Program-made: the position numbers and the translations under genes
Notes under the pieces: generated by a model
Databases searched by the model: none
Seen by the model: the letters and a program-made list of their open reading frames with translations, nothing else
Told to the model about the DNA's origin: nothing
IMG/VR virus record: IMGVR_UViG_2529292906_000018
Length of the DNA stretch: 36,198 nt
Reading direction: 5' to 3' (one strand)
From: a virus
Taxonomy: Duplodnaviria > Heunggongvirae > Uroviricota > Caudoviricetes
In this document: positions 4,364 through 33,300 of the stretch, piece after piece
Numbering within the stretch: position 1 is the first letter of the stretch
Layout of the letters: each line of letters opens with the position of its first letter

Positions 4364-4825
4364 ATGACGGCAGAGTACATCAGGGACTGGCAACAACCGC
4401 GCCACGCAGTGGGGCGTGAAGGAACGGGGATCCCCGCTCCTGAATCCGCGCTTTCCTCCTGGCTGGATGCCTACCGGGCAGAGAACGAGCACCGCCAGGA
4501 AATGGCTGATGCGGCGTTCTCCGCCACGCCGCTGGGCAACCTGATTAATAAAAGCCTGGACGCACAGGAAAAACAGGACAAAACCATCACACTGGCAGGA
4601 GACGCCAGAAAACAGGCACGCGGCGCGGTGGATGAAGCCATGGCCTCGCTGCGCCTGCTGCCGTCCTATCTGCGCGATCCGCTTATTCGCCACCTCTCCT
4701 TCCTGCGCAAAAAACAGGAAGCCGATCGTCAGAAAGGAAAAACGCCAGGCAGGCAGAACGCTATGCGCGTGGGACCCTGCGCAAAATATTCGAACGTCTG
4801 GAGCGCACCGATCACCGCTGGCTGA
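4364..4825 (+). CDS. A: probable N-terminal segment of replication protein A, separated from the main ORF by a -1 frame change
   Basis: Frame of the 4870 ORF is open and protein-like back to a stop at 4633-4635 with no ATG/GTG/TTG; upstream ORF 4364..4825 lies in the other frame; homopolymers A6 (4709-4714) and A5 (4738-4742) sit in the switch zone. Confidence 0.45.
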   Translation: MTAEYIRDWQQPRHAVGREGTGIPAPESALSSWLDAYRAENEHRQEMADAAFSATPLGNLINKSLDAQEKQDKTITLAGDARKQARGAVDEAMASLRLLPSYLRDPLIRHLSFLRKKQEADRQKGKTPGRQNAMRVGPCAKYSNVWSAPITAG

Positions 4826-4869
4826 CACCGGGTTATCGCTCCCTTGCCGGACGCGAACGCCTGGACGAT

Positions 4870-7185
4870 TTGCTTTACCTGCCGCAGCTCAACAAACACC
4901 AGATAAAGACGCTGGCAACCATGACGGCGGCGATGTTCAGCAGCACCTTCGAAAAACTCTGCGATGGCTTTGGCGCGACCGATGGCGAGCTGACCATGGA
5001 TGTAACCCTGAAGGCGTATCAGATGCTGGCCCGCATGGCGTTACACCTGCACGCCATGCCTCCACATTATGACGCACTGACAACAGACAAAGACCGGAGG
5101 AACGAACCGGACACGGAGCTGCTGCCGGGCGCAATCCTTCGCCTGACCTGTGCGGAATGGTGGAAACGCAAACTGTGGCTGTTACGTTGCGAGTGGAGAG
5201 AAGAACAACTCCGCGCCGCCTGTCTGGTTTCCAGAAAAACATCGCCCTATCTGAGCCAGGACGCGTTAAGCGAGTTTCGCGCACAGCGCGAGAAAACACG
5301 CGATTTCCTGAAAAGTTTCATGCTGGAAAACGAAGACGGGTTCACGATTGATCTCGAGACAGTGTATTACGCGGGAGTAAGTAACCCGGTTCACCGTAAG
5401 GCAGAAATGATGGCCACCATGAAGGGACTGGAACTTCTGGCCGAAGCCCGTGGCGACAGAGCGGTGTTTCTGACTGTCACCTGCCCGTCAAAATACCACG
5501 CAACAACGGAGAACGGTCATCCGAACCCCAAATGGAACGGGGCCACCATGCGCGACTCCAGCGATTACCTGGTTAACACGTTTTTTGCGGCGGTCCGCAA
5601 AAAACTGAACCGCGACGGCCTGCGCTGGTATGGCATCCGCACGGTGGAGCCTCACCATGACGGCACCGTGCACTGGCATATGATGGTCTTTGCTCATCCG
5701 GAAGAAATCGACAGCATCGTGACCATCACCCGCGATATTGCCATTCAGGAAGACCGCCACGAGCTGGGCAATGATATTACTCCGCGCTTTAAGGTGGAGT
5801 ACGTTGACGGCACCAAAGGCACGCCAACCAGCTACATCGCCACCTACATCGGAAAAAACCTGGACAGCCGCGCCGTGGATGGCATCGACCCGAAAACGGG
5901 CAAACCACGCGTTGACCACGAAACCGGAAAATCAATGGCCGAGAGCGTGGAGCGCGCCATCGGTTGGGCACGCCTTCACCGGGTCCGCCAGTTCCAGTTC
6001 TTTGGCATCCCCTCCCGTCAGGTGTGGCGTGAACTCCGCCGCCTTGCCAGCCAGATGGCACGCAACCCGGAAGGCCCGCAACGGCTGAAGGATGACGCAA
6101 TGGATGCGGTACTCGCTGCCGCTGATGCCGGATGTTTTGCCACCTACATAGAGAAACAGGGCGGCGTACTTGTTCCACGCAAAGACTACCTGATTCGCAC
6201 CGCCTACGACCTCGCCGATGAGCTGAACGATTACGGCGAACAGAGTGTACAGATTTACGGGATCTGGTCACCACTCATCGGGGAATCCTCCCGTGTGTGC
6301 ACGCACCCGGATAACTGGAAGCTGGTAAGACGTAAACCGGAACAGGAAGGCAGCGCCCACGAAAATGGTTTTGACCTTCAGGGCGGCCCTGCCGCCCCTT
6401 GGACTCGTGGCAATAACTGTCCCCGTGTACAGGAAACGGACAACAACGGGACAGAACAGCCGGAAGAACGGCCAGCACCGTGGCCGCAGCTCCCTGACAG
6501 CGTTGAAGTGAACGAATGGATGCGCTCACTAAAACGGCACGAACGCCGGGCGCTGATGCGTTCGCTTCGTGACAAACAGGCAAAAAACAGCAGTGATGAA
6601 ATGCAGAGCTGGACACAGAGCCGCAAACAGCAGCGGCCTTTGCCTGATAACCACGAATTACTCGCTAAAGAATGGCGGGAGTCTGCTGAATCTCTCGGCC
6701 TGCATATCGGTGAACAGCAGATGCAGCACCTGTTACGGGGCGGCAGTCTGTACGTTGACGGCAGCATCATTGCACCGCAGGGATTTGAAATTGTACGCAA
6801 ACCGGATACCCGCCCGGACAGCCGAATCACGCAGCTCTGGCAGCGCCTGAGCCGTAACCACGGCGTAAGCAGTACGGAGATCCGCCATAACCCGGTCGCC
6901 AGCTATCTGGAACAGCTGGGGACATTAGACCCCGAAGCCGCCGCACGCCTGGCATCCACACTTCAGCAAGACCAGAACACCATGAAAACACCCGTTACCG
7001 TGCTTTCTGACATGCTGCGCGCCATCCGCGACGCAGAGCACGCACAGAGAATCAGTGAAACCACTGAACGCGCCCGCCGCAAAGCAGACCTGCTGCGGGG
7101 TGGCCTGACCAGTGGAAACAAAAAACAGACAGAAACGGGATTCACAAATCCCGTAAATGAGCAAAAAACGCGCCGCGATATATGA
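4870..7185 (+). CDS. A: replication initiation endonuclease (P2 gpA family, rolling-circle initiator), main ORF
   Basis: 771 aa ORF with VEPHHDGTVHWHMMVF and YIATYIGKNLD motifs typical of gpA; listed TTG start at 4870 is probably not the true start (see N-terminal segment). Confidence 0.85.
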   Translation: MLYLPQLNKHQIKTLATMTAAMFSSTFEKLCDGFGATDGELTMDVTLKAYQMLARMALHLHAMPPHYDALTTDKDRRNEPDTELLPGAILRLTCAEWWKRKLWLLRCEWREEQLRAACLVSRKTSPYLSQDALSEFRAQREKTRDFLKSFMLENEDGFTIDLETVYYAGVSNPVHRKAEMMATMKGLELLAEARGDRAVFLTVTCPSKYHATTENGHPNPKWNGATMRDSSDYLVNTFFAAVRKKLNRDGLRWYGIRTVEPHHDGTVHWHMMVFAHPEEIDSIVTITRDIAIQEDRHELGNDITPRFKVEYVDGTKGTPTSYIATYIGKNLDSRAVDGIDPKTGKPRVDHETGKSMAESVERAIGWARLHRVRQFQFFGIPSRQVWRELRRLASQMARNPEGPQRLKDDAMDAVLAAADAGCFATYIEKQGGVLVPRKDYLIRTAYDLADELNDYGEQSVQIYGIWSPLIGESSRVCTHPDNWKLVRRKPEQEGSAHENGFDLQGGPAAPWTRGNNCPRVQETDNNGTEQPEERPAPWPQLPDSVEVNEWMRSLKRHERRALMRSLRDKQAKNSSDEMQSWTQSRKQQRPLPDNHELLAKEWRESAESLGLHIGEQQMQHLLRGGSLYVDGSIIAPQGFEIVRKPDTRPDSRITQLWQRLSRNHGVSSTEIRHNPVASYLEQLGTLDPEAAARLASTLQQDQNTMKTPVTVLSDMLRAIRDAEHAQRISETTERARRKADLLRGGLTSGNKKQTETGFTNPVNEQKTRRDI

Positions 7186-7230
7186 AGCGCGCATAAAACA
7201 GGCAAAAACGGGATTTCAGAATCCCGTAAA
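7134..7230. promoter_or_regulatory. pair of 20-bp palindromes at the A/parM junction (candidate parC-like centromere/operator)
   Basis: ACGGGATT-CACA-AATCCCGT at 7137-7156 and ACGGGATT-TCAG-AATCCCGT at 7209-7228, 72 bp apart, directly upstream of parM. Confidence 0.4.
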
Positions 7231-7261
7231 CGATTAATTAATCAACATAAGGAAAAGCGAC

Positions 7262-8221
7262 ATGAAAATTTGTATCGACGACGGCTCCACCAACATCAAG
7301 CTGGCATGGACTGAGAACGGCGAACGCCGCAACGCCATCAGCCCGAACAGCTTCAAGTCGGAATGGTCTGCGCCGTTCGGTGGCACGCAGCCCGCGAACT
7401 ACATGCTTGATGGCGTGCGCTATGGTTTTGATCCGGTCAGCGATCGCTTTGTCCAGACGACCGACACGCAATACCAGTACAGCGATGTGAATGTCATTGC
7501 CATTCATCACGCGCTGGTCAAATCAGGCATCACACCACAGGAGGTGGATGTGGTTGTCACCCTGCCACTGAGCGAGTATTTCGACACAAACGCACAGCCG
7601 GACATGGCCAACATCAACCGCAAAAAAGCGAACGTTATGCGCCCGGTGGAGTACCAGAACGGCGAGGCATTCACTATCCGTAACGTGCGGGTTATGCCTG
7701 AATCCATTCCGGCTGGCTTTAAGGCACTGGCTGACATGAGTCCGTTTGAATCCCTGCTGATTGTGGATTTGGGCGGAACCACGCTGGATGTGGCAAAGGT
7801 TCAGGGGCAACTGGCAGGTATCAGCCAGGTGTTTTGCGATCCACACGTAGGCGTTTCTCTGATGGCCGATGCCGTACTGTCAGTGATGGCCACTAACGGT
7901 ATGCGCACCAGTCACCACATCGCCAATACCATTATCGAACATCGCCATGATGAAGCCTGGCTGCGCCAGCACATCCACAATGACGCGCATTACGCCAGCC
8001 TGATGGCGGTTATTCGTGAAAAGGAAGAAACACTGAAACAACGCGTGATCCGCGCGCTGGCGGTTTTTTCGGGTTACGGGCGGGTGATGGTTGTCGGTGG
8101 AGGGGCGGAGATTGTGGCACCCGCTATCCGCGAAGCCTGCGGAGTTAATGCGACTTTCATCGCGGACGGGGTGCCACAGTTTGCTCTGGTTAATGGGCTG
8201 TACGCAATGGACAAGGAGTAA
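7262..8221 (+). CDS. parM: actin-like plasmid segregation ATPase ParM/StbA
   Basis: N-terminus MKICIDDGSTNIKLAW and YSDVNVIAIHHAL closely resemble R1 ParM (MLVFIDDGSTNIKLQW...YSDVNVVAVHHAL) as recalled; RBS AAGGA upstream. Confidence 0.85.
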   Translation: MKICIDDGSTNIKLAWTENGERRNAISPNSFKSEWSAPFGGTQPANYMLDGVRYGFDPVSDRFVQTTDTQYQYSDVNVIAIHHALVKSGITPQEVDVVVTLPLSEYFDTNAQPDMANINRKKANVMRPVEYQNGEAFTIRNVRVMPESIPAGFKALADMSPFESLLIVDLGGTTLDVAKVQGQLAGISQVFCDPHVGVSLMADAVLSVMATNGMRTSHHIANTIIEHRHDEAWLRQHIHNDAHYASLMAVIREKEETLKQRVIRALAVFSGYGRVMVVGGGAEIVAPAIREACGVNATFIADGVPQFALVNGLYAMDKE

Positions 8222-8225
8222 ACCA

Positions 8226-8537
8226 ATGACGACACCAACCAGACGGATAAGTTTCTATCTGAAGCCTGCGGCCGTCAAGAACGAAAGCGAAGCATGCGCC
8301 TGGCTGGACAGCCTTACACCAGAAGCCCGCAAAAGCGGCCAACGCGTGGCTTTTCTGGCCGGGCTGGCACTTCTGAAAATGAATCCAGCAGAGGCTTACC
8401 GACTGGCTGCATGGGCTGACGATGAGGCGTTATCAGTGACACAAACCAGGACAGAATGCCCCGCGTCACAGCCAGTATCAACCGCACAGATAACCAGTCA
8501 GATGGCCGGAAATATCCGGGCGTTATTTCCCGAATAA
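8226..8537 (+). CDS. parR: ParR-like centromere-binding adaptor protein
   Basis: ATG 8226 with AAGGAG 7 nt upstream; RRISFYLKPAAV...AFLAGLALLKMNP resembles R1 ParR (RRTIAFKLNPDV...ALTAGLALYRQDP) as recalled; immediately downstream of parM. Confidence 0.7.
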   Translation: MTTPTRRISFYLKPAAVKNESEACAWLDSLTPEARKSGQRVAFLAGLALLKMNPAEAYRLAAWADDEALSVTQTRTECPASQPVSTAQITSQMAGNIRALFPE

Positions 8538-8543
8538 CACAAC

Positions 8544-8576
8544 ATCAGGGCGCATCCGCCCTGATGACTTTAATCC
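8544..8576 (+). terminator. weak putative terminator after parR
   Basis: Hairpin ATCAGGGCG-catc-CGCCCTGAT at 8544-8565 followed by gacTTTaaTcc. Confidence 0.3.
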
Positions 8577-8635
8577 GGGAACATAAACAAGGGGGACACA
8601 ATGCAACACATTGACAGAGAAAAAGGAAAAAAAGC

Positions 8636-9043
8636 ATGAACAGAAAACAGAAACAAGAGTTGAAATACTTCTTACGTAAAGAAATTGCCAGGCTTGAAGA
8701 TGCAGAGTCACAATCATCAGAAATTCCGTTCGGAATGGATATCAACGACGCCCGTATGCTTCAGGCATACCGTATAGCTCAGGCTGCACTACAGACAAAA
8801 CCGTTAAATAACATACATGAAAAGTATGATTATTTTACGGATACCGCTTGCTTGCTGACATCTGAAGAACAAAAGATAGCCCAACTTTTAGGCGACGCAT
8901 GGAACCTGTATTTAACATTGCCAGTTGAGCATCCAATGGGTAGAGATGAATTTTGCCGGGCAATTCATCATTGCCAAAATATGGTGTTGGCACGCCCGGC
9001 CATCAGGGCGTTGGCCAGGAAGGGGCAAGGCTATAAAAGATAA
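8636..9043 (+). CDS. hypothetical protein (135 aa), accessory gene in the slot where P2 carries tin/old
   Basis: ATG 8636 with AAAGGA upstream; AT-richer than phage core; followed by a strong terminator; no recognisable motif. Confidence 0.5.
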   Translation: MNRKQKQELKYFLRKEIARLEDAESQSSEIPFGMDINDARMLQAYRIAQAALQTKPLNNIHEKYDYFTDTACLLTSEEQKIAQLLGDAWNLYLTLPVEHPMGRDEFCRAIHHCQNMVLARPAIRALARKGQGYKR

Positions 9044-9075: not shown

Positions 9076-9076
9076 A

Positions 9077-9527: not shown

Positions 9528-10574
9528 TCAGGATGTGGGCTGGGTGTCCAGCAGTGCATAAGGGTTAAAGCGGATCACCTCTTCGCCAAGCCAGTCATTG
9601 ATGTGCTTCATGGCCTCCATGACGGGCATCAGCTCGTTAATTGCGTAAACCCGCGCGGCCTTCTCCACATCACCAAACGCACTTTTTTCACCCGGCATCG
9701 CCCCCATCAGTTGCGGCGGGACACGGTGCGCAGCCAGCACATCATCACGGGATGCCGCCTTAACATTCATGAACTCATCCTTTGCGGTGATCTGCTGGAA
9801 CGGCAAAATTTGCCCCCCCTCTTTGCCCCCGTTGGGCGCATGAATGAGCACGTTTTTAAACGCACCACCACCACGTGCACCCTGTAACGTTTCTTTCAGG
9901 GAGTCCATGCTTTCGCGGTTTACCTGCGCTGCACCGATGTAGATGATGCACCCGGCGTGGGATCCGTTGTCGTAATACAGTTTTCTGAACATGTCCGCCG
10001 AATGAGACAGGCTGGCCGAGAGTAATGCGCCGAGATATTCCGGCATGCCGTAGATTTCCTGGTTAATATCCGGATTCATCAGGTGACACACTTTGCCGGG
10101 GCGAAACTGGAACGCGTCCTTGCCATCCTGCACATACCACCATGATTCAAGATCGCTTCCGCGTCGCATGTATTTCGCCAGGGCGTGCCGTAATTTAAGC
10201 GGTTCGCCGAGCATATTGCTCCGAAGCTCAAGGAATGCGTTACCGAACACAAACCAGTCCAGCGCCAGCGCCGAGAAATCCTGCCGGGAAAGCAGCGGGT
10301 GCGGGATGTAGCAACCGAGTAATACATTGCGCTTAAAGTAAAGCGCAGACTGATGCCAGGACGTTTGCCGGGCAGCTCTTGCCAGACCGTACCAGTCCAC
10401 CGGGGTTTCATACCACCGCCCGTTATCAGCACAGTACATATTATCCAGCAGGTCATGCCCGGTCAGGCGATAAGGCCCATCAAATGTGAATGCACTGAGC
10501 GACGATTCATTCCTGAGCGCATCAGCGAGATCAATGCGTGAACTCATGCGCACTTTTTTATTTTTTCTGCTCAT
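9528..10574 (-). CDS. Q: portal protein (P2 gpQ-like)
   Basis: 348 aa ORF at the P2 Q position beside P, leftward; GGAG SD; start overlaps P stop. Confidence 0.85.
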   Translation of the reverse strand: MSRKNKKVRMSSRIDLADALRNESSLSAFTFDGPYRLTGHDLLDNMYCADNGRWYETPVDWYGLARAARQTSWHQSALYFKRNVLLGCYIPHPLLSRQDFSALALDWFVFGNAFLELRSNMLGEPLKLRHALAKYMRRGSDLESWWYVQDGKDAFQFRPGKVCHLMNPDINQEIYGMPEYLGALLSASLSHSADMFRKLYYDNGSHAGCIIYIGAAQVNRESMDSLKETLQGARGGGAFKNVLIHAPNGGKEGGQILPFQQITAKDEFMNVKAASRDDVLAAHRVPPQLMGAMPGEKSAFGDVEKAARVYAINELMPVMEAMKHINDWLGEEVIRFNPYALLDTQPTS

Positions 10575-11767
10575 CAGAACTCCATAACCGTGAAACGCTC
10601 GTTTTCTCCTTCGCCGCCAATTGGTTCGTTAATGACAGCAAGCATGGTTGCCCACGCAAGGTCGCCGTGGCTGATCCCCCTCGCGCGGTCCGTTTCGTAA
10701 GTGATAAAGCCGCCCGGTGTTTTCACCTTACGCACGGCGTTAAAGGCTGCGACCAGTTCGCGTTCGGCGCGATCGTATTCCCACCGCCCGGCGCGCATTA
10801 TTTGCAGCATTTTCAGTACCAGCGACCGTTTTGATGACAGCGTGAAGGTGTACGGAATAGCAGCAGGGAAAAACCGTTTCACTATCTGATAAACAGCCTC
10901 CCCGTTCCCACCTGTCACATCAATGCCGATGTGTTCCACGTTGTAGCGACACGTGAACTCTTCAATGACTCTGGCCTGTTCTTCAAACTCCAGCCCCTGA
11001 ACGCGTCGCGTCTCCACTGTTCGAAAACGGCCACCAGGAACAGCCGGAGGGACCACCACGGACACCGCGCCGCTGTCGCCGTTGCCACTGCTGCCGTTTG
11101 CGTCATACCCAATCCATACCGGGCGATTCCCCATCGGGCGGGGAGCAAAAGGTTTCCAGTCTTTCCAGTCGTCGTATCCGTCAACACCGCAGCCAATCAG
11201 GATATTCAGGTTAAATGCCGATTCCCCTTCGCGGACAAACTCACACATATAGAGATTGAGGAACTCGTCTTCGGTGTTTTCATCACGAATTTCGTCGATA
11301 TCGGTGTGTTTCCAGCCGTGATTAACCACATCTTCCAGCGTGACAATTTGCCGCCACGTCCGGTCAGGGCAGATAAGCCCGTTATGCAGCGTTTTCCAGT
11401 CCACAGAAAAACGCTGGCGTTTATGCGTGGCCTTTTTCTCGTTCCAGCGGTCGCCGTTCCAGTAGGCGTATGCCTCGTGCGTTTCGGTGGATGGCGTGGA
11501 GAAGTAGGTGCGCCGCAGTCCGCTGAGGGTTGCCATAGCGCCAGCCACCTTGCGCAGTTCAGCAAAGCGGCTGACCCAGAAAAATTCATCAAAATAAAAA
11601 TTGCCAGTATAGGACTGTGCCGACGCAGCAGAAGTGCCGAGGAAATGCAGCTCTGCGCCGTTGGAGAGGATGATTTTATCACCCCCTTTCAGCTCCACAT
11701 CAACTTCAGCCGCGGCCTTCTGAATAATGCTTTTAAACTGGAACGCCTGACGACGCGACGCAGACAA
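10574..11767 (-). CDS. P: terminase ATPase (large) subunit, P2 gpP-like, C-terminal ORF
   Basis: 397 aa ORF; continues the 11689..12324 ORF after a -1 shift at T6 (plus A6 at 11766-11771); reading T7 would give ...RNQIFLSASRRQAFQF... Confidence 0.8.
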   Translation of the reverse strand: MSASRRQAFQFKSIIQKAAAEVDVELKGGDKIILSNGAELHFLGTSAASAQSYTGNFYFDEFFWVSRFAELRKVAGAMATLSGLRRTYFSTPSTETHEAYAYWNGDRWNEKKATHKRQRFSVDWKTLHNGLICPDRTWRQIVTLEDVVNHGWKHTDIDEIRDENTEDEFLNLYMCEFVREGESAFNLNILIGCGVDGYDDWKDWKPFAPRPMGNRPVWIGYDANGSSGNGDSGAVSVVVPPAVPGGRFRTVETRRVQGLEFEEQARVIEEFTCRYNVEHIGIDVTGGNGEAVYQIVKRFFPAAIPYTFTLSSKRSLVLKMLQIMRAGRWEYDRAERELVAAFNAVRKVKTPGGFITYETDRARGISHGDLAWATMLAVINEPIGGEGENERFTVMEF

Positions 11768-12324
11768 AAAATCTGGTTACGCTGGTAAGGTTGCGCCACA
11801 TCGTCACGCAGCGCCATCAACAGTGCTTCCTGTGCAAAATACCAGGTCGCCCCAATCTGTCGGGATTTCAGGATCATCCTGTTACGTATCCCGGCTTCCC
11901 TGCAAAGGGTCAGGGCGTCAAACCAGCCCCGCTGATGCCACTCCAGCCTGCTGATGATTTTTTCCCGCAGTGCGGCAATCTGTTCCGGCGTGAAATGATT
12001 TTTAAGTTTTTTCGCCCGGCTTTTCTTTCCTGTGGCCGTCGCATCCGGCTGGTCATTATGCAGTTTTTTAAGCTGCCGGGTCAGCAGGTCTATTTCCTTG
12101 AAGTCACCACCTGTTTTATTCTGTTTTTCAGTAAGCTGGATGAGGCGCGCATCGATGGACTGCGTGACACGCTGCACGGGTGGCGTTTCATCCCACTGAT
12201 CGCGTTTTTTCCACGCATAAATCGTGTTCGGGTTTATTCCCATCAGACGTGATATTTCTGCGGGCGGATAACCCTGCCAGTAAAGTTGTCGCGCACGCTG
12301 GCGCACAAAAGCGTCCTGAATCAT
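11689..12324 (-). CDS. P: terminase ATPase (large) subunit, P2 gpP-like, N-terminal ORF
   Basis: 211 aa ORF starting MIQDAFVRQRARQLYWQGYPPAEISRLMGINPNTIYAW (N-terminal HTH typical of P2-type terminase); GGGGGAG SD. Confidence 0.8.
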   Translation of the reverse strand: MIQDAFVRQRARQLYWQGYPPAEISRLMGINPNTIYAWKKRDQWDETPPVQRVTQSIDARLIQLTEKQNKTGGDFKEIDLLTRQLKKLHNDQPDATATGKKSRAKKLKNHFTPEQIAALREKIISRLEWHQRGWFDALTLCREAGIRNRMILKSRQIGATWYFAQEALLMALRDDVAQPYQRNQIFCLRRVVRRSSLKALFRRPRLKLMWS

Positions 12325-13315: not shown

Positions 13316-13338
13316 TAAGACAAAGGAGCAAATTTTTT

Positions 13339-15237: not shown

Positions 15238-15339
15238 CGACTGACCCCGTCAGCGGGCGGCGTGCGCGGTGTTCCGGTTTGACTCCGTGACCGTTTACAC
15301 CGCGCACCCACCGCCCGATTTTTTTCAGGAGTGAACCCC

Positions 15340-16034: not shown

Positions 16035-16036
16035 CA

Positions 16037-19311: not shown

Positions 19312-19314
19312 ATC

Positions 19315-23015: not shown

Positions 23016-23021
23016 ATATAA

Positions 23022-23468
23022 CTAAGCCGCCCTCACGATATAGTTAAATGCAATATTGCGGGGGCGGGTTTCACTACCACCTGTGTTACCAATACTTCCT
23101 CGTGAATGAAGCGTTGGTGATGGAATCAAACTCCCTCCTGTATTTGTGGCATCAAGCCCCCTGCCTTGTGTATATGTTTTTTTGAAAATCGTAGCCAACT
23201 CCCATTCATCTTTTGTGTCATATCCATCGTTAGCTACAACAATATGGCGGTGTTTTTCCAACATCCCGTTTTGAATGCTCAATAAAGCGCGTGCCGCATC
23301 AATTCCTCGCCCATCATCCCAGCCACGGATAAATTCGCCCCGTAAATCCGGTAATTTATTGGTGGGGTAGGCCTTTGCCAGATTGGGGTACATTTCAGAA
23401 GAAAATGCTGCGCCGTTACATTTCAGCCACCCCGTTGGCAGCGTGGCTGAGGGCCATGGAACGGGCAC
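23022..23468 (-). CDS. silent alternative tail-fibre C-terminal cassette 2 (promoterless, invertible)
   Basis: Begins with the H junction motif (V)PVPWPSATLPTGWLKCNGAAF and ends ETRPRNIAFNYIVRAA; listed start is an in-frame GTG, the frame continues into the crossover site. Confidence 0.6.
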   Translation of the reverse strand: MPVPWPSATLPTGWLKCNGAAFSSEMYPNLAKAYPTNKLPDLRGEFIRGWDDGRGIDAARALLSIQNGMLEKHRHIVVANDGYDTKDEWELATIFKKTYTQGRGLDATNTGGSLIPSPTLHSRGSIGNTGGSETRPRNIAFNYIVRAA

Positions 23469-23489
23469 ACCAACGGGCAGTGCAGAACC

Positions 23490-23515
23490 TTCTCCTAAAC
23501 CAACGTTTTCATGCG
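23490..23515 (-). other. invertase crossover site 2 (inverted relative to the H site)
   Basis: TTCTCCTAAACCAACGTTTTCATGCG; reverse complement shares GTTGGTTTAGGAGAA with the H-site half. Confidence 0.5.
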
Positions 23516-23982
23516 GCTCTTACGATGTAATTAAATGCAACGTTGCGAGGGCGAGTTTCTGTACCTACATTTCCACTAATTTCACCAAACCGTTTTACAT
23601 TACGAGAGCTAATGGCTCGTAGTGAGGAAGGCACCTTTAAACCGGGTTCGTCTGTTTTAACTATTCCCCCGTCCCCGTATGTAGCCAGTATTCCAGGGTT
23701 TACTCCTTCCCGTGTACTTCCCGCGGCAAGTCCATCCCCGGTCCATAATTCCATATAGTGTGCATGATCCAAAATTGTGTGTGGCTGCCAATTAAGCAAA
23801 GCGCGGCCAGCATCCACCCCGCGCCCATCATCCCAGCCACGAATAAATTCACCCCGTAAATCCGGTAATTTATTGGTGGGGTAGGCCTTTGCCAGATTGG
23901 GGTACATTTCAGAAGAAAATGCTGCGCCGTTACATTTCAGCCACCCCGTTGGCAGCGTGGCTGAGGACCATGGAACGGGCAC
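23509..23982 (-). CDS. silent alternative tail-fibre C-terminal cassette 3
   Basis: Same conserved N-terminal junction and C-terminal ETRPRNVAFNYIVRAA motif, different central segment. Confidence 0.6.
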   Translation of the reverse strand: MPVPWSSATLPTGWLKCNGAAFSSEMYPNLAKAYPTNKLPDLRGEFIRGWDDGRGVDAGRALLNWQPHTILDHAHYMELWTGDGLAAGSTREGVNPGILATYGDGGIVKTDEPGLKVPSSLRAISSRNVKRFGEISGNVGTETRPRNVAFNYIVRAA

Positions 23983-24003
23983 ACCAACGGGCAGCGCCGA
24001 GCC

Positions 24004-24029
24004 TTCTCCTAAACCAACGTTTTCATGCG
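24004..24029 (-). other. invertase crossover site 3
   Basis: Identical 26-mer TTCTCCTAAACCAACGTTTTCATGCG. Confidence 0.5.
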
Positions 24030-24232
24030 GCTCTTACGATGTAATTGAATGCAACGTTGCGGGGGCGTGTTTCTGCTGTGCCGACAATACTGGTACTCAG
24101 TCCTGTCGCTGTTCGTTTGTTATTTTTATTCCCTTCGATAAGACAGTTGTAATCGTCATTACCAATTAACGAGTTGGTGGCATCAATACTGTCCGGGGAC
24201 AAGGCATTAGTTGTGGAACTTAAAGTCAGCAT
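24023..24232 (-). CDS. alternative tail-fibre cassette 4, distal segment (after -1 frame change)
   Basis: Ends AETRPRNVAFNYIVRAA; frame is open upstream to 24298; joins the 24256..24612 ORF if the A6 run at plus 24289-24294 is read one base longer. Confidence 0.5.
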   Translation of the reverse strand: MLTLSSTTNALSPDSIDATNSLIGNDDYNCLIEGNKNNKRTATGLSTSIVGTAETRPRNVAFNYIVRAA

Positions 24233-24255
24233 CTCGTCTGAACTTGGAAGATTTT

Positions 24256-24612
24256 TTAATGGGGTTTCATTACGTGAAATACCCGCATAAAAAAGGACTC
24301 ATGCCTGTGCGCTTCAAAGGAGTCATCCTGAAGACTTAGCAAGGCACGCCCAGCATCCAAGCCACGTCCATCATCCCAGCCACGGATAAATTCACCCCGT
24401 AGATCCGGTAATTTATTCGCGGGGTAAGCCTGTGCCAGTTTGGGGTAATCTTCAGAAGAAAATGCTGCGCCGTTACATTTCAGCCAGCCCGTTGGCGGTG
24501 TAGCTGAGGGCCACGGAACGGGTACACCAACGGGCAACGCAGAGCCTTCCCCCAAACCAACGTTTTCGTCTTTATCCCTACCTATACCAACTATGTATTT
24601 TTCACGAAACAA
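24256..24612 (-). CDS. alternative tail-fibre cassette 4, proximal segment
   Basis: Contains GLGEGSALPVGVPVPWPSATPPTGWLKCNGAAFSSEDYPKLAQAYPANKLPDLRGEFIRGWDDGRG, then runs out of frame. Confidence 0.5.
   Translation of the reverse strand: MFREKYIVGIGRDKDENVGLGEGSALPVGVPVPWPSATPPTGWLKCNGAAFSSEDYPKLAQAYPANKLPDLRGEFIRGWDDGRGLDAGRALLSLQDDSFEAHRHESFFMRVFHVMKPH
24547..24572 (-). other. invertase crossover site 4, adjacent to the invertase gene
   Basis: TTCCCCCAAACCAACGTTTTCGTCTT, a variant of sites 2 and 3. Confidence 0.45.
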
Positions 24613-24626
24613 AGAGGATGTTTTTT

Positions 24627-25226
24627 ATGCAAATTGGCTATATTCGTGTGTCAACAAATGACCAGAACACGGATTTACAACGCAATGCACTGAACTGCGC
24701 AGGATGTGAACTGATTTTTGAAGATAAAATCAGCGGAACGAAATCAGCCAGACCGGGATTGAAAAAACTGCTCAGAACGCTATCAGAAGGAGATACGCTG
24801 GTTGTCTGGAAGCTGGACAGACTGGGCAGAAGTATGAAACACCTGATCACGCTTATTGAGGAATTGCGGGAAAAAGGTGTTAATTTCCGTAGTCTGACGG
24901 ACAGCATTGACACATCAACACCCATGGGGCGTTTCTTTTTTCACGTCATGGGGGCTTTAGCCGAAATGGAACGTGAATTAATTGTAGAACGTACACTGGC
25001 CGGGCTGGCAGCAGCACGCGCACAAGGACGCATTGGCGGACGTCGCCCGAAGTTGACAAAAGAACAACACGAGCAAATAGCGAGGCTGATTAAAAACGGT
25101 CATGACAGGAAACAACTGGCGATCATTTACGACATCGGCATATCGACGATTTATCGTTATCACCCTGTAGGCGATATACAGGCTGAAGAAACAACCAGGC
25201 AGACTCAGGAAAATGAAAACCGCTAA
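24627..25226 (+). CDS. serine DNA invertase (Hin/Gin/Cin/Pin family)
   Basis: MQIGYIRVSTNDQNTDLQRNAL...GDTLVVWKLDRLGRSMKHL...FRSLTDSIDTSTPMGRFFFHVMGALAEMERELI is near-identical in pattern to Gin/Hin as recalled; ATG 24627 within ORF 24618..25226. Confidence 0.9.
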   Translation: MQIGYIRVSTNDQNTDLQRNALNCAGCELIFEDKISGTKSARPGLKKLLRTLSEGDTLVVWKLDRLGRSMKHLITLIEELREKGVNFRSLTDSIDTSTPMGRFFFHVMGALAEMERELIVERTLAGLAAARAQGRIGGRRPKLTKEQHEQIARLIKNGHDRKQLAIIYDIGISTIYRYHPVGDIQAEETTRQTQENENR

Positions 25227-25753: not shown

Positions 25754-28570
25754 TCAATCTTTATCGTAAAAACTGCCACGCCCGGCACGGGCGCGCCGTT
25801 CCATTTCTGCCCTGACCATTTCACCGACCAGTTTCGCCAGTTCGCGGGGATTCTGCGTAACAACGTTATGCAGATGAACATGAATTTCACCACCAAATCC
25901 GGAGGCAACAGGCTCCCGGTTACGGGAAGTTACAGGAACTGATGCCACTGGAGATCGTATGGCCTCCGCCACCGGGTGGGAGCTGGCCGCAACAACAGGG
26001 ACCAGCGCCGGAGGCAGCGGAGCCGGGACCACGGGGGTGATATTAATTGCGGGGGCAGGCTTACTGACCTGTGCAATCTTCCGCTCCTGCCACTCCCCAC
26101 GAACAGCAAGTGCGCGGGGCAAGTTCTTAAAGACAATATCGCCGGGGCCAATGCGTTTTTTCGTCTCATCAACCAGCTTACCTGTGTTATCAGCAATTTT
26201 GCTGAGTCTGCGTAGCGTCCCAGTATTGCTGTCTGTGAGCGGTTTGTTGTCTTTGGGTTTATCACCTCCGGTGCCATTGCCATTTTCCACAGGCTTCGGC
26301 GGATTGATTTTCGCCAGGTCCCCCTGAAGTAAGGCAACCTTGTCCTGAAGAATGGCCGCACGCTGTGCGTCTTCGATTTTCTTGCGCGCCCTTTCCGCTT
26401 CATCCGGAAGGACGCCAAGTTTTTCAAGTATCCACGCCAGCGTATCCAGTAGCATTTTTGCAGGTGTCAGAACAAGTTGTAACGCACCGCCAAGAACGTT
26501 ACCGAATACCTCGCCAGCACTGGTACATTTATCCAGCGTTTCCTTGCTGGACTCCATCGGTGACAACAGCGATTTAAACCAGTTAAACACCTGGCTGATC
26601 CCGCTTCCGATTGCGTCAAAAACAGGACCAAACCGTTCAAAGGTTTCGCGCAACGGGGTCAGCCTTTCCATAATCCCGCTGAACACCCCGGCAAAAAATG
26701 CCCTGATGGGATCCCAGTATTTCCAGATGAGAACGGCAGCTCCGGCAAGCGCAGCCACGATAAGACCGACCGGACTGAACAACGCCCCGATAGCGCCCCC
26801 CAGTAACGAAACGGAACCCGTCACCATTCCCCATAGTGCTGGCAGAACCCTGACAGCATTCATTGATCCGGTCAGGAGGGAAAAACCAAGACGCAGTTTT
26901 GCCAGCGGACCAGCAAGCACACCAATAGCCAGCGACAACGAGCCAACCGTTGCAGTCATTGCCAGCAGTGCACCGCCTGCAATCAGTAGCTGGCGCGTCA
27001 GTGCGGGATGGGCCTGCGCCAGCGCCGTCACCTTTGATACCACACGCGTGAGCCACTGCGTGACAGAACGCAGCGGACCGTCAATCAGATCTGCAATGCG
27101 GATGCGCAACCCTTCCCATGCACTGCTGAGTGATTTCAGATCGCCGTCAAGGTTGTTGGCCATAACCTTTGCCGTGCGTTCAGCCTCACCGCGCGCGCCT
27201 TCAAGTTCTTTTCTCAGTTTGGGTAAGGAGCCGTCACCTGCCGCATCAACGAGGGCCATAAATGATGTGAAAGCCTCTTCTCCGGCAATGTCCTTAAAGA
27301 ACGATACCCGGTCAACTTCCCCGTATTTGCGGGTAGCTTTATAAAGGTCAGCCAGCACATCCTCCATCGGGCGCATTTTGCCCCCGGCATCCGAGACAGA
27401 CACGCCAAGCTCTTTCAGCGCCTCTGCTGCCGCCTTTGGCGGTGATGCCAGACGAGCCAGGCTGGCACGCATTGCCGTACCAGCATCACTCCCCCTGATA
27501 CCCATATTCGCCAGCACGCCCGCCATCGCTGCGGCCTGCTCCAGCGATATTCCCAGCTTACCCGCCACCGGACCTGCATATTTCATGGTTTCACCCAGTG
27601 CGCGAAGGTCAGTGTTGGTACGGGTAAACGCTGCGGTGAGTGTGTCGCCGACCCGGTCCATCTGGTCAGCAGAAAGACCGAACTGCGTCAGAATATTTGA
27701 GCCAATATCCGCCGTCTCACCGAGGTCCATACCGCCAGCCGTTGCCATGCTCAGTACGCCAGGGAGCGCAGCCTGAATGGCCTGTGGTGTGAAGCCAGCC
27801 ATTGCAAGAAATGCCTGCCCACTGGCGGCATCGCCTGCGGTGAACTGCGTTTCAGAGCCAAGTTTTAACGCCTGCTCACGCAGCGCCTTAAACTGCGGGC
27901 TGTTTTTGTCGATTCGCGTCAGTGCCTGAACGCGGGACATCTCTTTCCCGAACCCGATCGCAGGCTGCAAAAAACGCCCGGCAGCATAGCCGCCCGCCGC
28001 TGCCGCACCAATTGCCAGCGCACCACCTGTTTTCAGTTTTCCCGCTGTTTCCTGCGCGCGCGAATACCGCTCACGCGCCCGCGTTACACGCGCAAGCGCC
28101 TGCCGTTCGCGTTCAAGCTGGTTGTTGTACTGTTCGGTGCGTCTGATGGCCTGCTGGATGGTGTTATCGCTGCCTGTCAGGGAAATGCCGTGGCGTTTCA
28201 GCTCTCCGCCAAGCTCCCGCATTTTCTGAATTTCCCGTGTGCGCGATTCATTCAGGCGTTCAAGCCGGGTGCTTAACTGCTGCATCAGCTTTTGTTGTTT
28301 TTCGCTGAGCACTGTACCCGTGCGTTGTAACTGATTAAGGGCGTTAAGCTGGCGTCGTGCTTTCACGATACCCGCATCCGCTTTACTGACAGCGTCGCGG
28401 GCGCGCTCAAATGAACGCGCCTGACGCTCGAGATTTTTGATCGCCCCCTGCGTTCGCTGGATGGAGTCACCAAACTGCCCCATCAGGCGGCGGGCGTTTT
28501 CGGCAGGCCGGGTCAGCCTGTCAACGGCGCTGAAAGCGACCCGGATGTCAAGAGTCTTCATTATCTGCAT
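25754..28570 (-). CDS. T: tail tape measure protein (P2 gpT-like)
   Basis: About 940 aa, Ala/Gly-rich coiled-coil protein with hydrophobic central region; start ambiguous (ATG 28570, ATG 28561 or GTG 28597). Confidence 0.85.
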   Translation of the reverse strand: MQIMKTLDIRVAFSAVDRLTRPAENARRLMGQFGDSIQRTQGAIKNLERQARSFERARDAVSKADAGIVKARRQLNALNQLQRTGTVLSEKQQKLMQQLSTRLERLNESRTREIQKMRELGGELKRHGISLTGSDNTIQQAIRRTEQYNNQLERERQALARVTRARERYSRAQETAGKLKTGGALAIGAAAAGGYAAGRFLQPAIGFGKEMSRVQALTRIDKNSPQFKALREQALKLGSETQFTAGDAASGQAFLAMAGFTPQAIQAALPGVLSMATAGGMDLGETADIGSNILTQFGLSADQMDRVGDTLTAAFTRTNTDLRALGETMKYAGPVAGKLGISLEQAAAMAGVLANMGIRGSDAGTAMRASLARLASPPKAAAEALKELGVSVSDAGGKMRPMEDVLADLYKATRKYGEVDRVSFFKDIAGEEAFTSFMALVDAAGDGSLPKLRKELEGARGEAERTAKVMANNLDGDLKSLSSAWEGLRIRIADLIDGPLRSVTQWLTRVVSKVTALAQAHPALTRQLLIAGGALLAMTATVGSLSLAIGVLAGPLAKLRLGFSLLTGSMNAVRVLPALWGMVTGSVSLLGGAIGALFSPVGLIVAALAGAAVLIWKYWDPIRAFFAGVFSGIMERLTPLRETFERFGPVFDAIGSGISQVFNWFKSLLSPMESSKETLDKCTSAGEVFGNVLGGALQLVLTPAKMLLDTLAWILEKLGVLPDEAERARKKIEDAQRAAILQDKVALLQGDLAKINPPKPVENGNGTGGDKPKDNKPLTDSNTGTLRRLSKIADNTGKLVDETKKRIGPGDIVFKNLPRALAVRGEWQERKIAQVSKPAPAINITPVVPAPLPPALVPVVAASSHPVAEAIRSPVASVPVTSRNREPVASGFGGEIHVHLHNVVTQNPRELAKLVGEMVRAEMERRARAGRGSFYDKD

Positions 28571-29086
28571 TCCCGCTGCGAAGTGCCGCCCGCTCACGCC
28601 AGCTAACCACTTCGCCGGGCGTCATCATGAAGATTTCGGCGGGCGACCAGTTAAAAATGGCGGCAATATCCGCCACCAGATCTTCGATGTGCTCAAAGCA
28701 CACCAGGGTGATTACGCTGCCGTCTCCTGCACGCTCTTCGCGCCAGAGTCTGGCTCGCTCATAAAATTTACAGCCACAGCGCACAACTGAATAAAATCGC
28801 GTGACGACATTTTTTTAATCATCACTTCATCCAGTCGTGGCGAGGTCACGCGAGGCAACAGCGTGAACATGGTATCCGCTTTCAGATTCAGCACATCAGA
28901 CAGCGACAGACCACGCAGGGATCCCGCCTGCTCAATAGCCCCGGTGATTTCCACATATGTGATTTTTTCGGCACCACGCTCAATTGGCCGGGAAAGTTTT
29001 ACACCACGTTCGACAGCCATATCCTCACCTGCCGTCACATCATCCGCTACGGTGTTATTCCGGGTTTCAGTATCGATGTCTTTCAT
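28548..29086 (-). CDS. E+E': E+E' fusion chaperone produced by programmed -1 translational frameshift
   Basis: The -1 frame opens immediately after a TAA embedded in an A7 run (plus 28810-28816) inside E and runs to 28548; second candidate slippery heptamer A_AAT_TTT at plus 28763-28769; this architecture is conserved in P2-type and lambda-type tails. Confidence 0.65.
28712..29086 (-). CDS. E: tail assembly chaperone E (P2 gpE-like)
   Basis: 124 aa ORF with AAGGAGA SD between the tube gene and the tape measure gene. Confidence 0.75.
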   Translation of the reverse strand: MKDIDTETRNNTVADDVTAGEDMAVERGVKLSRPIERGAEKITYVEITGAIEQAGSLRGLSLSDVLNLKADTMFTLLPRVTSPRLDEVMIKKMSSRDFIQLCAVAVNFMSEPDSGAKSVQETAA

Positions 29087-29141
29087 CAGTTGTCTCCTTT
29101 TCAGTCAGAGGCGACGCACTGCGTCGCCTGCATATTACTTA

Positions 29142-30995: not shown

Positions 30996-31736
30996 ATGAC
31001 CGACACCACCATGCAATTGCTCAGTCAGGGCACAGACCCCGTGAAAATGCCGGATTTTGATATTCTCGCGGAGGGTAAAACGCTGTCAGGCATGGCAGAG
31101 CGCCTGATGAGCCTGTCACTGACCGACAACCGGGGATTTGAGGCGGACCAGCTCACCATCACGCTGGATGATGCGGATGGTCAGTTGCAGCTACCGCCAC
31201 GGGGCGCGCGCCTGACGGTTCTCATTGGCTGGAAAGGAGAACCGCTGACAGAAAAAGGCACTTACATTGTTGATGAAATTGCTCATGAAGGACCGCCCGA
31301 CAGACTGACCATTTCAGCCAGAAGCGCAGATTTTCGGGATGAATTTAACGTCAAGCGCGAAGTATCTTGGCATGATGTGACCGTTGAACGCGTGGTGTCT
31401 GCAATTGCTCACCGATACGGCCTGAAACCGCAAATCAGCGAAATGCTGATGGATATTGAAATCGACCACGCTGACCAGACCGAAGAAAGCGACATGTCCT
31501 TCCTTACGCGCATGGCGGAAATGCTGGGCGCAATCACCACGGTAAAAAGCGGCAATCTGTTATTCATCATGCCAGGTGGTGGCGTGAACGCACAGGGGCA
31601 GCCGTTGCCCTCGTTCGCCATTACACGCAGCAGCGGCGATCGCCATCAGTTCCGCATTGCTGACCGCGAGGCGTATACGGGGGTACGCGCCTACTGGCTT
31701 GATCTTAATTACGGGAAAAAGAAAAAGTCAGCGTGA
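30996..31736 (+). CDS. D: tail protein D (late control gene D family), N-terminal ORF
   Basis: ATG 30996 after GGGAGGG; gpD-family pattern (...SLTDNRGFEADQL...FLTRMAEMLGA...FRIADREAYTGVRAYW); ends inside a Lys-rich AAAAAGAAAAAG tract. Confidence 0.8.
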   Translation: MTDTTMQLLSQGTDPVKMPDFDILAEGKTLSGMAERLMSLSLTDNRGFEADQLTITLDDADGQLQLPPRGARLTVLIGWKGEPLTEKGTYIVDEIAHEGPPDRLTISARSADFRDEFNVKREVSWHDVTVERVVSAIAHRYGLKPQISEMLMDIEIDHADQTEESDMSFLTRMAEMLGAITTVKSGNLLFIMPGGGVNAQGQPLPSFAITRSSGDRHQFRIADREAYTGVRAYWLDLNYGKKKKSA

Positions 31737-32104
31737 AACGCCGCAAACCGCCAAAACCCAAAAAGGAGAAAAGCAGCAGTCGGGAAGGCGACTATATGGA
31801 AGGTGCGGAAGGCAACGTGTTTGTGTTACGCAAGACTTATCAGAACGAGCAGGCAGCAAGACGCGCAGCGGCGGCAAAGTGGCAGCAGCTACAACGCGGA
31901 GCCGCATCATTCTCCATCACGCTGGCGCGTGGTCGTGCAGAACTCTATCCCGAAATGCATGGCACAGTGACAGGCTTTAAAAGCGAGATTGATTATCAGG
32001 ACTGGATTATTGCAAAAGCCGAGCACACCATTGATAACAGCGGCTTTACCACGCAGCTTGAACTTGAAGCAAAAATCCCGGAATGGATAGCAGAAACAGA
32101 ATAA
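31733..32104 (+). CDS. D: tail protein D, C-terminal segment in -1 frame
   Basis: EGDYMEGAEGNV...AAAKWQQLQRGAASFSITLARGRAELYPE...GFKSEIDYQDW...SGFTTQLELE matches the gpD C-terminal domain as recalled; frame is open back to 31709; joins the N-terminal ORF if the A5 run at 31716-31720 or 31722-31726 is A6. Confidence 0.7.
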   Translation: MKRRKPPKPKKEKSSSREGDYMEGAEGNVFVLRKTYQNEQAARRAAAAKWQQLQRGAASFSITLARGRAELYPEMHGTVTGFKSEIDYQDWIIAKAEHTIDNSGFTTQLELEAKIPEWIAETE

Positions 32105-32256
32105 ATCTCTTAAAAATATTATTTTTGAGATGTGCTTCTACACTGACAGTAAGAACAAAAGATAATGTATCAGCCCACTAGATGTCAGAGGTTGGGGCAT
32201 CAACCAGATGCTAACAATAATACGGATGTTTTTCCCACATGACAGAGGAAGTCAAG

Positions 32257-32262
32257 TATAAT
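32257..32262 (+). promoter_or_regulatory. candidate -10 element (TATAAT) for the island operon
   Basis: tataat at 32257-32262, about 90 bp upstream of ATG 32353; no good -35 found. Confidence 0.25.
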
Positions 32263-32352
32263 CTTCACAGTCCATCCCGTCCAAGGGAATATGACTCAAT
32301 AGTAAAAGTTCCAGTTTAGTTAGTAGACCCACACTTTATAGAAGAGTAATTC

Positions 32353-33300
32353 ATGATTGGACAATTTTTAAGTGCAACAGAGATTTTAGCAAAGAACTAT
32401 GTTCGTAATAAAATGGTTAAAAATCCATTTTATTCGAATTTAAAATGGAATTTTATTGAAAAAAACATCATAAGATTAACATCCTCACCGGTTAAATCAG
32501 TACTTTGCATATCAGCTTTTTCATTTGTACTACTTTATGTTGGATATTTAAACGAATTATTTATAAAAAATAATCTTTTACATTATTTCCCGTTTAGGCA
32601 TTCATTAACCGAATGGCAAACAACCATTTTAAGTGGCCAATTGACAATTATTGGTATTGTATACCCCCTTGTTATAGGTTTAGTAAGTGTCTTATTCCAA
32701 AAAAAGGCAGATAGAAAAATAGCCCAAACTGCTTATCAGCGTTACTCAGGATTCATGCTTGCTGGACTCAGCGGGCTTTTCTTATCAGGATTTATACTTC
32801 TCAGTGTACTAATTAAAACTGTCTTTGGAAGTTATCTTTATGGTATAGCTTGTCTAATCAGCATATTATGGCTTTTGATAAACATAGTTCTTTCTATTTG
32901 GTTCTTTATCGTGAGTCTTGAAATTCTTGATGATGTAAAACGGCAAATAATTATAAAGCGATACATTGCCTTCGAAATAGTAATGCCCCATATTTGTAAC
33001 AAAATCTCAGCCAAGCTTAGGTTATACCCTATCTATCAAAAACATAACTATTCAAATTTAGAAATCAAGCAAGCCGATTACAAAGGAGAATACATATCTG
33101 TGGCTAGCGGTTATTCTAAGGAAGATGAGTTAAGTTTATATCACCGTCCTTTTCAACTTACTCTTAATCTTATTAATTGCCAACTAAAAAGAAGAATCAT
33201 TTTGCGTCATTTGTCATTGGTGATAATCGTGCAAAAGAAACAGAATCCACGGGTAAGATACTTTTTAGCGTTAAAAATATCAAACCAGACAGCTTATTAA
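32353..33300 (+). CDS. hypothetical polytopic membrane protein (about 4 TM helices), AT-rich island gene 1
   Basis: 315 aa ORF; hydrophobic stretches VLCISAFSFVLLYVGYL, LTIIGIVYPLVIGLVSVLF, FMLAGLSGLFLSGFILLSVLI, LYGIACLISILWLLINIVLSIWFFIVSL; very AT-rich codon usage. Confidence 0.55.
   Translation: MIGQFLSATEILAKNYVRNKMVKNPFYSNLKWNFIEKNIIRLTSSPVKSVLCISAFSFVLLYVGYLNELFIKNNLLHYFPFRHSLTEWQTTILSGQLTIIGIVYPLVIGLVSVLFQKKADRKIAQTAYQRYSGFMLAGLSGLFLSGFILLSVLIKTVFGSYLYGIACLISILWLLINIVLSIWFFIVSLEILDDVKRQIIIKRYIAFEIVMPHICNKISAKLRLYPIYQKHNYSNLEIKQADYKGEYISVASGYSKEDELSLYHRPFQLTLNLINCQLKRRIILRHLSLVIIVQKKQNPRVRYFLALKISNQTAY

Follow-up and report, generated by a model that had tools for sequence, protein, structure and literature searches.

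Homopolymer Frameshifts in Draft Genomes and in P2-Like Prophages

Changes of reading frame at runs of identical bases are known from several settings, of which the closest to the present locus is the under-calling of runs in 454 sequencing. For isolates of about 50% GC, 454 assemblies contain about 5% more frameshifted genes than Illumina assemblies, and these errors are biased to A/T homopolymers and show no further drop above about 20x coverage (PMC3277595). An error is marked by run lengths that appear as sporadic outliers and not as clade-specific alleles, whereas authentic tracts follow clades (PMC4746626).

Other described systems belong to the biology of phages and bacteria. Among the P2-like prophages of E. 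coli, some are cryptic or defective; they represent the same phage family as the prophage discussed here, and lesions in other strains affect the same genes. Other assemblies show several independent disruptions of the terminase, and gene A of CP124502.1 has one additional base in an A-run. P2-like phages also have a single programmed frameshift of the -1 type, which changes the frame of the tail chaperone E/E+E' at an A/T-rich slippery stretch. In phase-variable homopolymeric tracts, a change of run length likewise shifts the frame.

The locus of this study resembles 454 under-calls in having single-base deletions in runs of at least 5, with an A/T bias, that are private to one assembly. Five deletions in 36 kb, affecting 5 of about 48 genes (about 10%), fit the published range but are high within it. 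The locus differs from such under-calls also in that all runs are A on the + strand, which for a consensus of both strands is not predicted by the chemistry. Genuine decay elsewhere combines mixed lesions with substitutions, whereas here a single lesion type is found and a near-clonal copy is intact. The E/E+E' site is conserved unchanged in relatives, but the five breaks are found in none of them. Contingency tracts lie in surface or restriction genes, tend to be longer and differ in length from one related strain to another, in contrast to the runs considered here, the length of which is invariant across hundreds to a thousand genomes.

The DEC6A Prophage and Its Five Broken Genes

The window, that is, the whole stretch of 36,198 nt that was analyzed, is a prophage in the draft contig AIFV01000014.1 of E. 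coli DEC6A (assembly GCA_000249595.2), flanked by btuC and ihfA. It is P2-like (Peduoviridae, P88-like), with 96% identity to phage P88 and 75% of the first 25 kb covered. The P2 gene order (int, C/cox region, A, Q P O N M L, lysis, tail, H-G, F1 F2 E T U D, ogr) was recovered from the Pfam content of the called genes, and the counterpart of the tail chaperone E/E+E' consists of overlapping ORFs at 28548-29086.

The original prediction had described five -1 frame breaks at A/T homopolymers, all with a base missing and all in runs of at least 5. BLAST against annotated relatives identified exactly these five, each being a deletion of 1 nt in an A-run of the + strand with a true length of 6 or 7, and direction and context were uniform at 5/5 sites. 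The prediction that essential genes are split holds for gene A, terminase and gpD, but not for the other two genes, a silent inverted tail-fibre cassette and an accessory ORF.

Gene A, encoding the replication endonuclease (4364-7185, + strand), is split into 4364-4825 (153 aa) and 4870-7185, while relatives have one ORF of 2823 nt (940 aa). Two runs had been proposed for its break; the one at 4738-4742 is A5 in the window and A6 in relatives, with matching context, whereas the length of the run at 4709-4714 is unchanged in relatives. The gpP-like large subunit of the terminase (10574-12324, - strand) is divided into 12324-11689 (211 aa) and 11698-10574 (374 aa) in place of the single 583-aa ORF of relatives, and its break lies at 11766-11771, where the + strand has A6 (T6 on the coding strand) against A7 in relatives.

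The third silent tail-fibre C-terminal cassette of the invertible region, the cassette repeats of which were mapped, occupies 24023-24612 on the - strand. It is split into 24537-24256 and 24232-24023, corresponds to a 171-aa ORF in relatives and is broken at 24289-24294 (A6 against A7). The gene for gpD, the late control D/tail protein (30996-32104, + strand), is present as 30996-31736 (246 aa) and 31733-32104 (123 aa), compared with one ORF of 1110 nt (369 aa) in relatives; its true start is 30996, the mechanical ORF start at 30864 being wrong. Of the two runs proposed here, 31716-31720 has the same length in relatives, whereas the second run of this A5-G-A5 stretch, at 31722-31726, is A5 against A6 and marks the break. 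The last broken gene, the island ORF, is an AT-rich (33% GC) accessory ORF in the interval between gpD and ogr (32353-35471, + strand), which has neither a Pfam nor a PADLOC match. It is split into 32353-33300 (315 aa) and 33396-35471 by an A5 at 33186-33190 that is A6 in relatives, in which a single ORF of 3120 nt encodes 1039 aa.

The comparison of the window with close relatives revealed no further frame-breaking indel, nor any nonsense codon, IS element or large deletion. A/T runs of at least 5 make up 2.4% of the window, and the chance that all five indels would fall in them is about 8e-9. The chance of A on the + strand at all five sites is about 0.06.

Repair of the Runs Restores Known Proteins

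When one A was added in silico at each site, a single clean ORF was obtained at all five, as expected from the earlier claim that one extra base would restore each protein. The repaired products each have exact full-length matches on other contigs: gene A (940 aa) on 43, terminase (583 aa) on 343, the cassette (171 aa) on 110, gpD (369 aa) on 116 and the island ORF (1039 aa) on 72. These exact matches mean that the five repaired proteins have 0 amino-acid changes in 3,102 codons.

An Intact Near-Clonal Copy of the Prophage

The portal allele of DEC6A was found in one other assembly only, GCA_900450015.1. Between this copy and positions 1-20569 of the window there are 2 substitutions and 10 homopolymers that differ in length by one base. 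Gene A and the terminase (583 aa) are intact in the copy, which carries the long alleles at 4738 and 11766; at the remaining 8 homopolymer differences DEC6A agrees with all relatives, and the broken genes are in GCA_900450015.1. The long alleles at 24289, 31722 and 33186 are present on a second contig of the same assembly (L027) and also in two clean relatives (L026 and L020; 99.75% identical). All of the closest copies (L054/L027, L026, L020 and L048) have the long alleles, and the lesions are not common by descent.

With a near-clonal copy that has 2 substitutions in 20.6 kb and is intact at the five sites, the change specific to DEC6A is reduced to five homopolymer deletions and about one substitution (at 14604). 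A ratio of 5 indels to about 1 substitution is that of flow-based (454-type) consensus error and not of biological mutation. In mutation-accumulation studies of E. coli, indels amount to about a tenth of substitutions.

The Short Alleles Are Nearly Absent From Other Genomes

The short alleles were searched for in 5,426 complete E. coli genomes with 81-base contexts. No exact 81-mer match was obtained for gene A among the 1053 complete genomes with the region, for the terminase among 1110 complete-genome records or for gpD among 374 such records; the cassette allele had no exact match among the 63 complete-genome records with the context. The island allele was found in 0/5 complete genomes with its context, all five of which have the extra A, and the best 81-mer matches in the complete genomes have the extra A at every site. 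With 45-46-mers designed so that the short allele alone can seed a match, the gpD allele (45-mer) was found in 2/5,426 genomes, and the terminase 46-mer had no match among the complete E. coli genomes. In an exact look-up, the truncated proteins of gene A, the N-terminal part of the terminase, the island ORF and the cassette were found only in DEC6A (EHV59776.1 and others) and in Logan re-assemblies of SRR094143 and SRR094144.

Partial exceptions to this privacy concern two sites, the gpD A5, which was found in 2 complete genomes as well as 2 other read sets, and the terminase T6. The latter also occurs in GCA_002053555.1 (L013), where the gene differs by 4/1751 nt and no other broken gene is found in 20 kb, and in two further places similar to it. 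In addition, a 211-aa terminase fragment with an identical frameshifted tail on a different background (P0019) is present on 15 contigs. This recurrence may reflect either real slippage at the terminase run or repeated mis-calling.

Two fragments with a wider distribution were rejected as proof of a real or inherited frameshift. Any disruption further upstream leads to a call of the 374-aa terminase fragment, and its presence on about 24 contigs is a matter of ascertainment; the lesions on these contigs include a -1 at another position (11786), a loss of 4 nt at 11922 and contig ends at 11713. The 123-aa gpD fragment occurs on 260 contigs, but the short allele is nearly absent from complete genomes.

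Reads of DEC6A and Host Flanks

Logan re-assemblies of SRR094143 and SRR094144 are 100% identical to the window across 21.5 kb. Their contigs stop within the T6-A-T6 stretch at 10554-10566 and next to an A6 run, and in a contig of SRR094144 a G2 run and a C4 run are under-called. Such contig ends and G/C under-calls point to flow-type read noise, and from the behavior of the re-assemblies together with the age of the accessions the platform was probably 454. At gene A and the terminase, the short allele is present in two independent assemblies of the DEC6A reads, and their agreement means that the majority of reads were under-called at these sites. For runs of just 6-7, an under-call in most reads is a strong systematic error. 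The truncated gpD and island fragments were absent from the Logan set of SRR094143; the Logan matches belonged to other runs, ERR12767407 and ERR10499321.

In the host DNA on the flanks of the prophage (12.7 kb), no homopolymer deletion was found and all genes are intact. A/T runs of at least 6 number 13 in the host flank compared with 63 in the window; with 13 runs, about one error would be expected, and the zero found is therefore weak evidence. A 113-aa infC call in this DNA was considered as a broken host gene and rejected, since it is an AUU-start miscall with no indel. The look-up of the host gene at the left end returned other strains only.

Origin of the Frame Breaks

We consider it very probable that the five breaks are consensus errors in the deposited DEC6A draft assembly. 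In flow chemistry, a run of identical bases is read as one signal, and the length of long A/T runs tends to be under-estimated; at five runs of true length 6 or 7 most reads may then be one base short, and the consensus would inherit the error. The DNA of the strain would carry the long alleles, and the real prophage would most likely be an intact P2-like phage in which gene A encodes 940 aa, the terminase has 583 aa, gpD 369 aa and the accessory ORF 1039 aa, and in which the silent cassette is unbroken. The original prediction had also favored systematic sequencing error, with a decaying prophage as its alternative, and the reading as error is supported by the repair, the rarity of the short alleles, the intact near-clonal copy and the read noise.

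The breaks might instead be genuine, all five having arisen by recent replication slippage in a freshly decaying P2-like prophage that lacks replication, packaging and tail assembly. No class of spontaneous indel is commoner than the loss of one base from an A/T run, defective P2-like prophages exist, including strains with the terminase disrupted otherwise, two assemblers gave the short allele from DEC6A reads at two sites, and the host flanks are without such deletions. Against this stand the near-clonal copy that is intact at the five sites, and five fixed indels with about one substitution, which is far from the known mutation spectrum of E. coli. Five genes without a single amino-acid change, only one type of lesion, and the loss of a silent cassette and an accessory ORF for which selection is not obvious also argue against slippage, as does the scarcity or complete lack of the short alleles among 5,426 complete genomes. 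We regard genuine slippage at all five sites as quite improbable. Equally improbable is a version in which real deletions arose almost together in the DEC6A lineage, for example through a transient mismatch-repair deficiency or slippage of A-tracts on one strand, and an intact prophage was silenced by homopolymer changes alone.

Slightly less improbable, though still quite unlikely, is a mixture in which sequencing error accounts for four of the breaks, while the T7-to-T6 change of the terminase is a real allele or a mutational hot spot. It is favored by the T6 of L013 in a near-identical terminase and in two further similar places, and by the frameshifted tail of P0019 on 15 contigs of another background. 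However, these contigs were found via a fragment that intact genes do not yield, which is ascertainment, while the intact protein is on 343 contigs; the copy in GCA_900450015.1 has A7 and an intact 583-aa terminase, and the short allele is in no complete genome. More generally, there is a small chance that one or more of the breaks are real, the terminase being the likeliest. Recoding, by which programmed ribosomal frameshifting or transcriptional slippage on the A-runs would still yield full-length proteins, has a negligible probability. A-runs can support polymerase slippage, and the chaperone gene of P2-like phages is a precedent for a programmed -1 event, but recoding sites are conserved, whereas in all relatives one additional A leaves the ORF uninterrupted, in line with the earlier claim that these are not programmed frameshifts. 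Runs of 5-6 are below the lengths at which efficient transcriptional slippage is known, and five independent sites private to one assembly are not credible as recoding signals.

Consequences for the Deposited Record

Taken as consensus errors, the breaks are an ordinary finding and almost certainly not a real biological feature. If they were real, the prophage would be unable to replicate, to package its DNA or to build tails, which is routine for E. coli. The main value of the analysis lies in data quality. A prophage predictor would score the element as defective, although it is probably intact. A cheap test that needs no reads consists of two questions, whether repair of the run gives an exact protein match elsewhere and whether a near-clonal genome is intact at the site. 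The deposited DEC6A record contains truncated "proteins," of which at least one, the 315-aa island fragment, has its own RefSeq accession, WP_001420413.1.

Five frame breaks in the prophage of Escherichia coli DEC6A

The window is a 36.2-kb P2-like prophage that exact matching of its proteins traced to E. coli DEC6A (GCA_000249595.2, contig AIFV01000014.1 of 700,748 bp, locus tags ECDEC6A_2002 to _2041), and its first 25 kb are 96% identical to Escherichia phage P88 over 75% of the length. Thousands of complete genomes of E. coli carry a relative of this prophage, and in the annotated relatives the element lies between btuC and ihfA with the gene order of P2. BLAST comparison with three annotated relatives showed that the reading frame is broken at exactly five places, in each case by a plus-strand A-run that is one base shorter; against the closest relatives no further frame-breaking indel was seen. 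The window carries A5 where relatives carry A6 in gene A (4738-4742), gpD (31722-31726) and the island ORF (33186-33190), and A6 where they carry A7 in the terminase large subunit gene (11766-11771) and a silent tail-fibre cassette (24289-24294). The intact products in relatives have 940, 369, 1039, 583 and 171 aa, respectively. This confirmed the five one-base losses at A/T homopolymers claimed by the original prediction; where it had left two candidate runs open for gene A and gpD, the second is the real site in both and the first is not. The gpD gene starts at 30996, and its pieces of 246 and 123 aa add up to 369 aa. A/T runs of at least 5 make up only 2.4% of the window, and thus the placement of the breaks is far from random. 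The breaks are real in the deposited sequence and almost certainly absent from the organism.

Addition of one A per site restored clean ORFs in all five cases, each with one terminal stop. The repaired proteins, looked up as exact full-length sequences in a 15-billion-protein collection, were all already present: gene A (940 aa) on 43 contigs, terminase (583 aa) on 343, gpD (369 aa) on 116, the island ORF (1039 aa) on 72 and the cassette (171 aa) on 110. Therefore, none of the 3,102 codons in these 'pseudogenes' specifies a different amino acid.

Comparison with a near-clonal assembly

The strongest evidence for an artefact comes from GCA_900450015.1. The V254G change in the DEC6A portal protein is private within the panel of relatives, and exact look-up of this protein found only one other assembly, GCA_900450015.1, whose strain may belong to the same lineage and whose prophage occupies the same btuC site. 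Between positions 1 and 20569 of the window, 2 substitutions separate the two assemblies, along with 10 homopolymers that differ in length by one base. At 4738 and 11766, GCA_900450015.1 has the long allele, with one more A, and both gene A (940 aa) and terminase (583 aa) are intact. In the eight remaining homopolymers, all relatives side with DEC6A and the split genes are those of GCA_900450015.1, so these differences are errors of the latter. That assembly has a scatter of its own of single-base errors, for the most part insertions into short G/C runs, which split gpM, gpR, gpV and gpW; the part of its prophage corresponding to 15755-20569 lies on two of its contigs. For the sites at 24289, 31722 and 33186, the long allele is present in a second contig of GCA_900450015.1 (L027) and in L026 and L020, which are clean assemblies with 99.75% identity to the window.

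Compared with an essentially identical prophage, DEC6A is one base short in five homopolymers and has about one substitution of its own. The latter, at 14604 (T vs C, synonymous in gpM), is the only substitution in which DEC6A stands apart from both the near-clonal assembly and every other relative. In mutation accumulation of E. coli, substitutions outnumber spontaneous indels roughly tenfold, and even mismatch-repair mutants are not known to reach five indels per substitution. By a rough estimate, five real slippage events among 63-66 long runs would have a probability below 1e-4 at this level of divergence.

Short alleles in other genomes

The 81-base contexts with the short allele were searched in 5,426 complete E. 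coli genomes, in which the context occurs in 1053 records for gene A, 1110 for terminase, 63 for the cassette, 374 for gpD and 5 for the island ORF. No exact match was obtained at any of the five sites in these genomes, and the best matches all span 82 bases, the extra A being present. Searches with 45-46-mers, which can be seeded by the short allele alone, found two complete genomes for gpD and none for terminase. The short alleles are therefore either missing from finished genomes or very uncommon there. Pointing the other way, the gpD short allele appeared again in two other read sets, one of which looks noisy because it has a second A7-to-A6 change 1 kb off.

Natural length variation among relatives is seen in the intergenic T-runs at 15319-15325 (T7 vs T6) and 13333-13338 (T6 vs T5), where the DEC6A lengths are shared with L013 (a locus of GCA_002053555.1) and the near-clonal assembly and are thus real alleles. 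The complete genome CP124502.1 lacks a protein call for gene A and has A7 instead of A6 at the equivalent of 6582; either the gene is truly a pseudogene there or the record has a long-read homopolymer error.

Probable error process and alternative readings

Over 21.5 kb, including the private alleles, the window is matched at 100% identity by Logan re-assemblies of SRR094143 and SRR094144, whose reads are therefore those of DEC6A itself. Their contigs end inside T6-A-T6 (10554-10566) and also beside an A6 run, and the SRR094144 contig has under-called G2 and C4 runs, from which we infer flow-type (454-like) reads in a k-mer assembler. For isolates of ~50% GC, frameshift errors affected ~5% more genes in 454 assemblies than in Illumina ones, with a bias to A/T homopolymers and no further gain above ~20x coverage (PMC3277595). 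Five of ~48 genes is on the high side of this rate and within reach. Authentic homopolymer variants follow clades, and sporadic outliers indicate error (Scholz et al.; PMC4746626).

It is highly probable that all five breaks are consensus artefacts, and the near-clonal copy, the repair test and the complete-genome searches support the sequencing error originally favoured. Five real, recent mutations, as in a decaying prophage, are very improbable. In their favour, the host DNA on both sides (12.7 kb, including pheS, pheT, rplT and ihfA) has no homopolymer deletion, although with only 13 A/T runs of at least 6, against 63 in the window, about one error is expected there; two assemblers run on the same DEC6A reads also agree on the short allele for gene A and terminase, so an under-call would be systematic at the read level. 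However, such mutations would have to yield five indels for about one substitution, with every amino acid of the affected proteins unchanged.

A real break in terminase alone is hardly more probable. The same T6 allele occurs in L013, an otherwise clean assembly whose terminase differs by 4/1751 nt, and in a 211-aa fragment on 15 contigs, but the near-clonal assembly has an intact gene and no complete genome of the 5,426 has the short allele. In other E. coli assemblies terminase is disrupted in at least four ways within ~250 nt (11689-11930): the T6 allele (L013), a non-homopolymer -1 at 11786 (L012 and L015), a -4 at 11922 (L010) and contigs ending at 11713, possibly at an insertion (L014, L016 and L017). 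These were found with a query fragment that an undisrupted gene would not yield; disrupted terminases do exist, but the DEC6A break is not thereby shown to be inherited. They may reflect either selection for packaging-defective prophages or ascertainment only. Programmed frameshifting at the breaks, already disfavoured by the original prediction, is barely conceivable, since a recoding site would be conserved and all homologues examined are single ORFs with one more A. The outcome is a caution on the DEC6A record and a read-free way to test such cases.

Other features of the prophage

The one genuine frame change in the window is probably that at 28548-29086 (minus strand), where a 124-aa tail gene is followed in the -1 frame by a 51-aa GpE-family ORF overlapping the start of the tape-measure gene. 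The tail chaperone genes of P2 (E/E+E'), with their conserved programmed -1 frameshift, would be expected to have this layout, and A AAT TTT at about 28769-28763 is a candidate slippery sequence.

The island ORF (32353-35471) encodes 1039 aa, is AT-rich (33% GC), has a hydrophobic N-terminal region and lies between gpD and ogr. RefSeq labels it 'MFS transporter', and it has no match in Pfam or PADLOC. Other relatives have a KAP-family NTPase or nothing in this slot, which is therefore a variable cargo site, and the ORF is a possible defence gene. The slot at 7262-9043, flanked by gene A and the portal gene, is a second such cargo site and encodes a ParM/StbA-like ATPase, a plasmid-stability protein and a 135-aa ORF, without a PADLOC match; relatives have an AAA ATPase and an S8 peptidase instead. 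At the right end, a hok/gef-family toxin gene (36058-36198) adjoins ihfA and is kept at this position in relatives.

The tail-fibre region (21933-25226) is invertible. A stretch of ~240 nt in gene H (21933-22174) recurs as inverted repeats in three silent C-terminal cassettes (23272-23561, 23798-24075 and 24327-24618), adjoined by a serine DNA invertase gene (24627-25226; Resolvase and HTH_7). The segment 21941-23554 is inverted relative to an E2348/69-derived relative and collinear with strain 160-11H1, and thus the switch occurs in both states.
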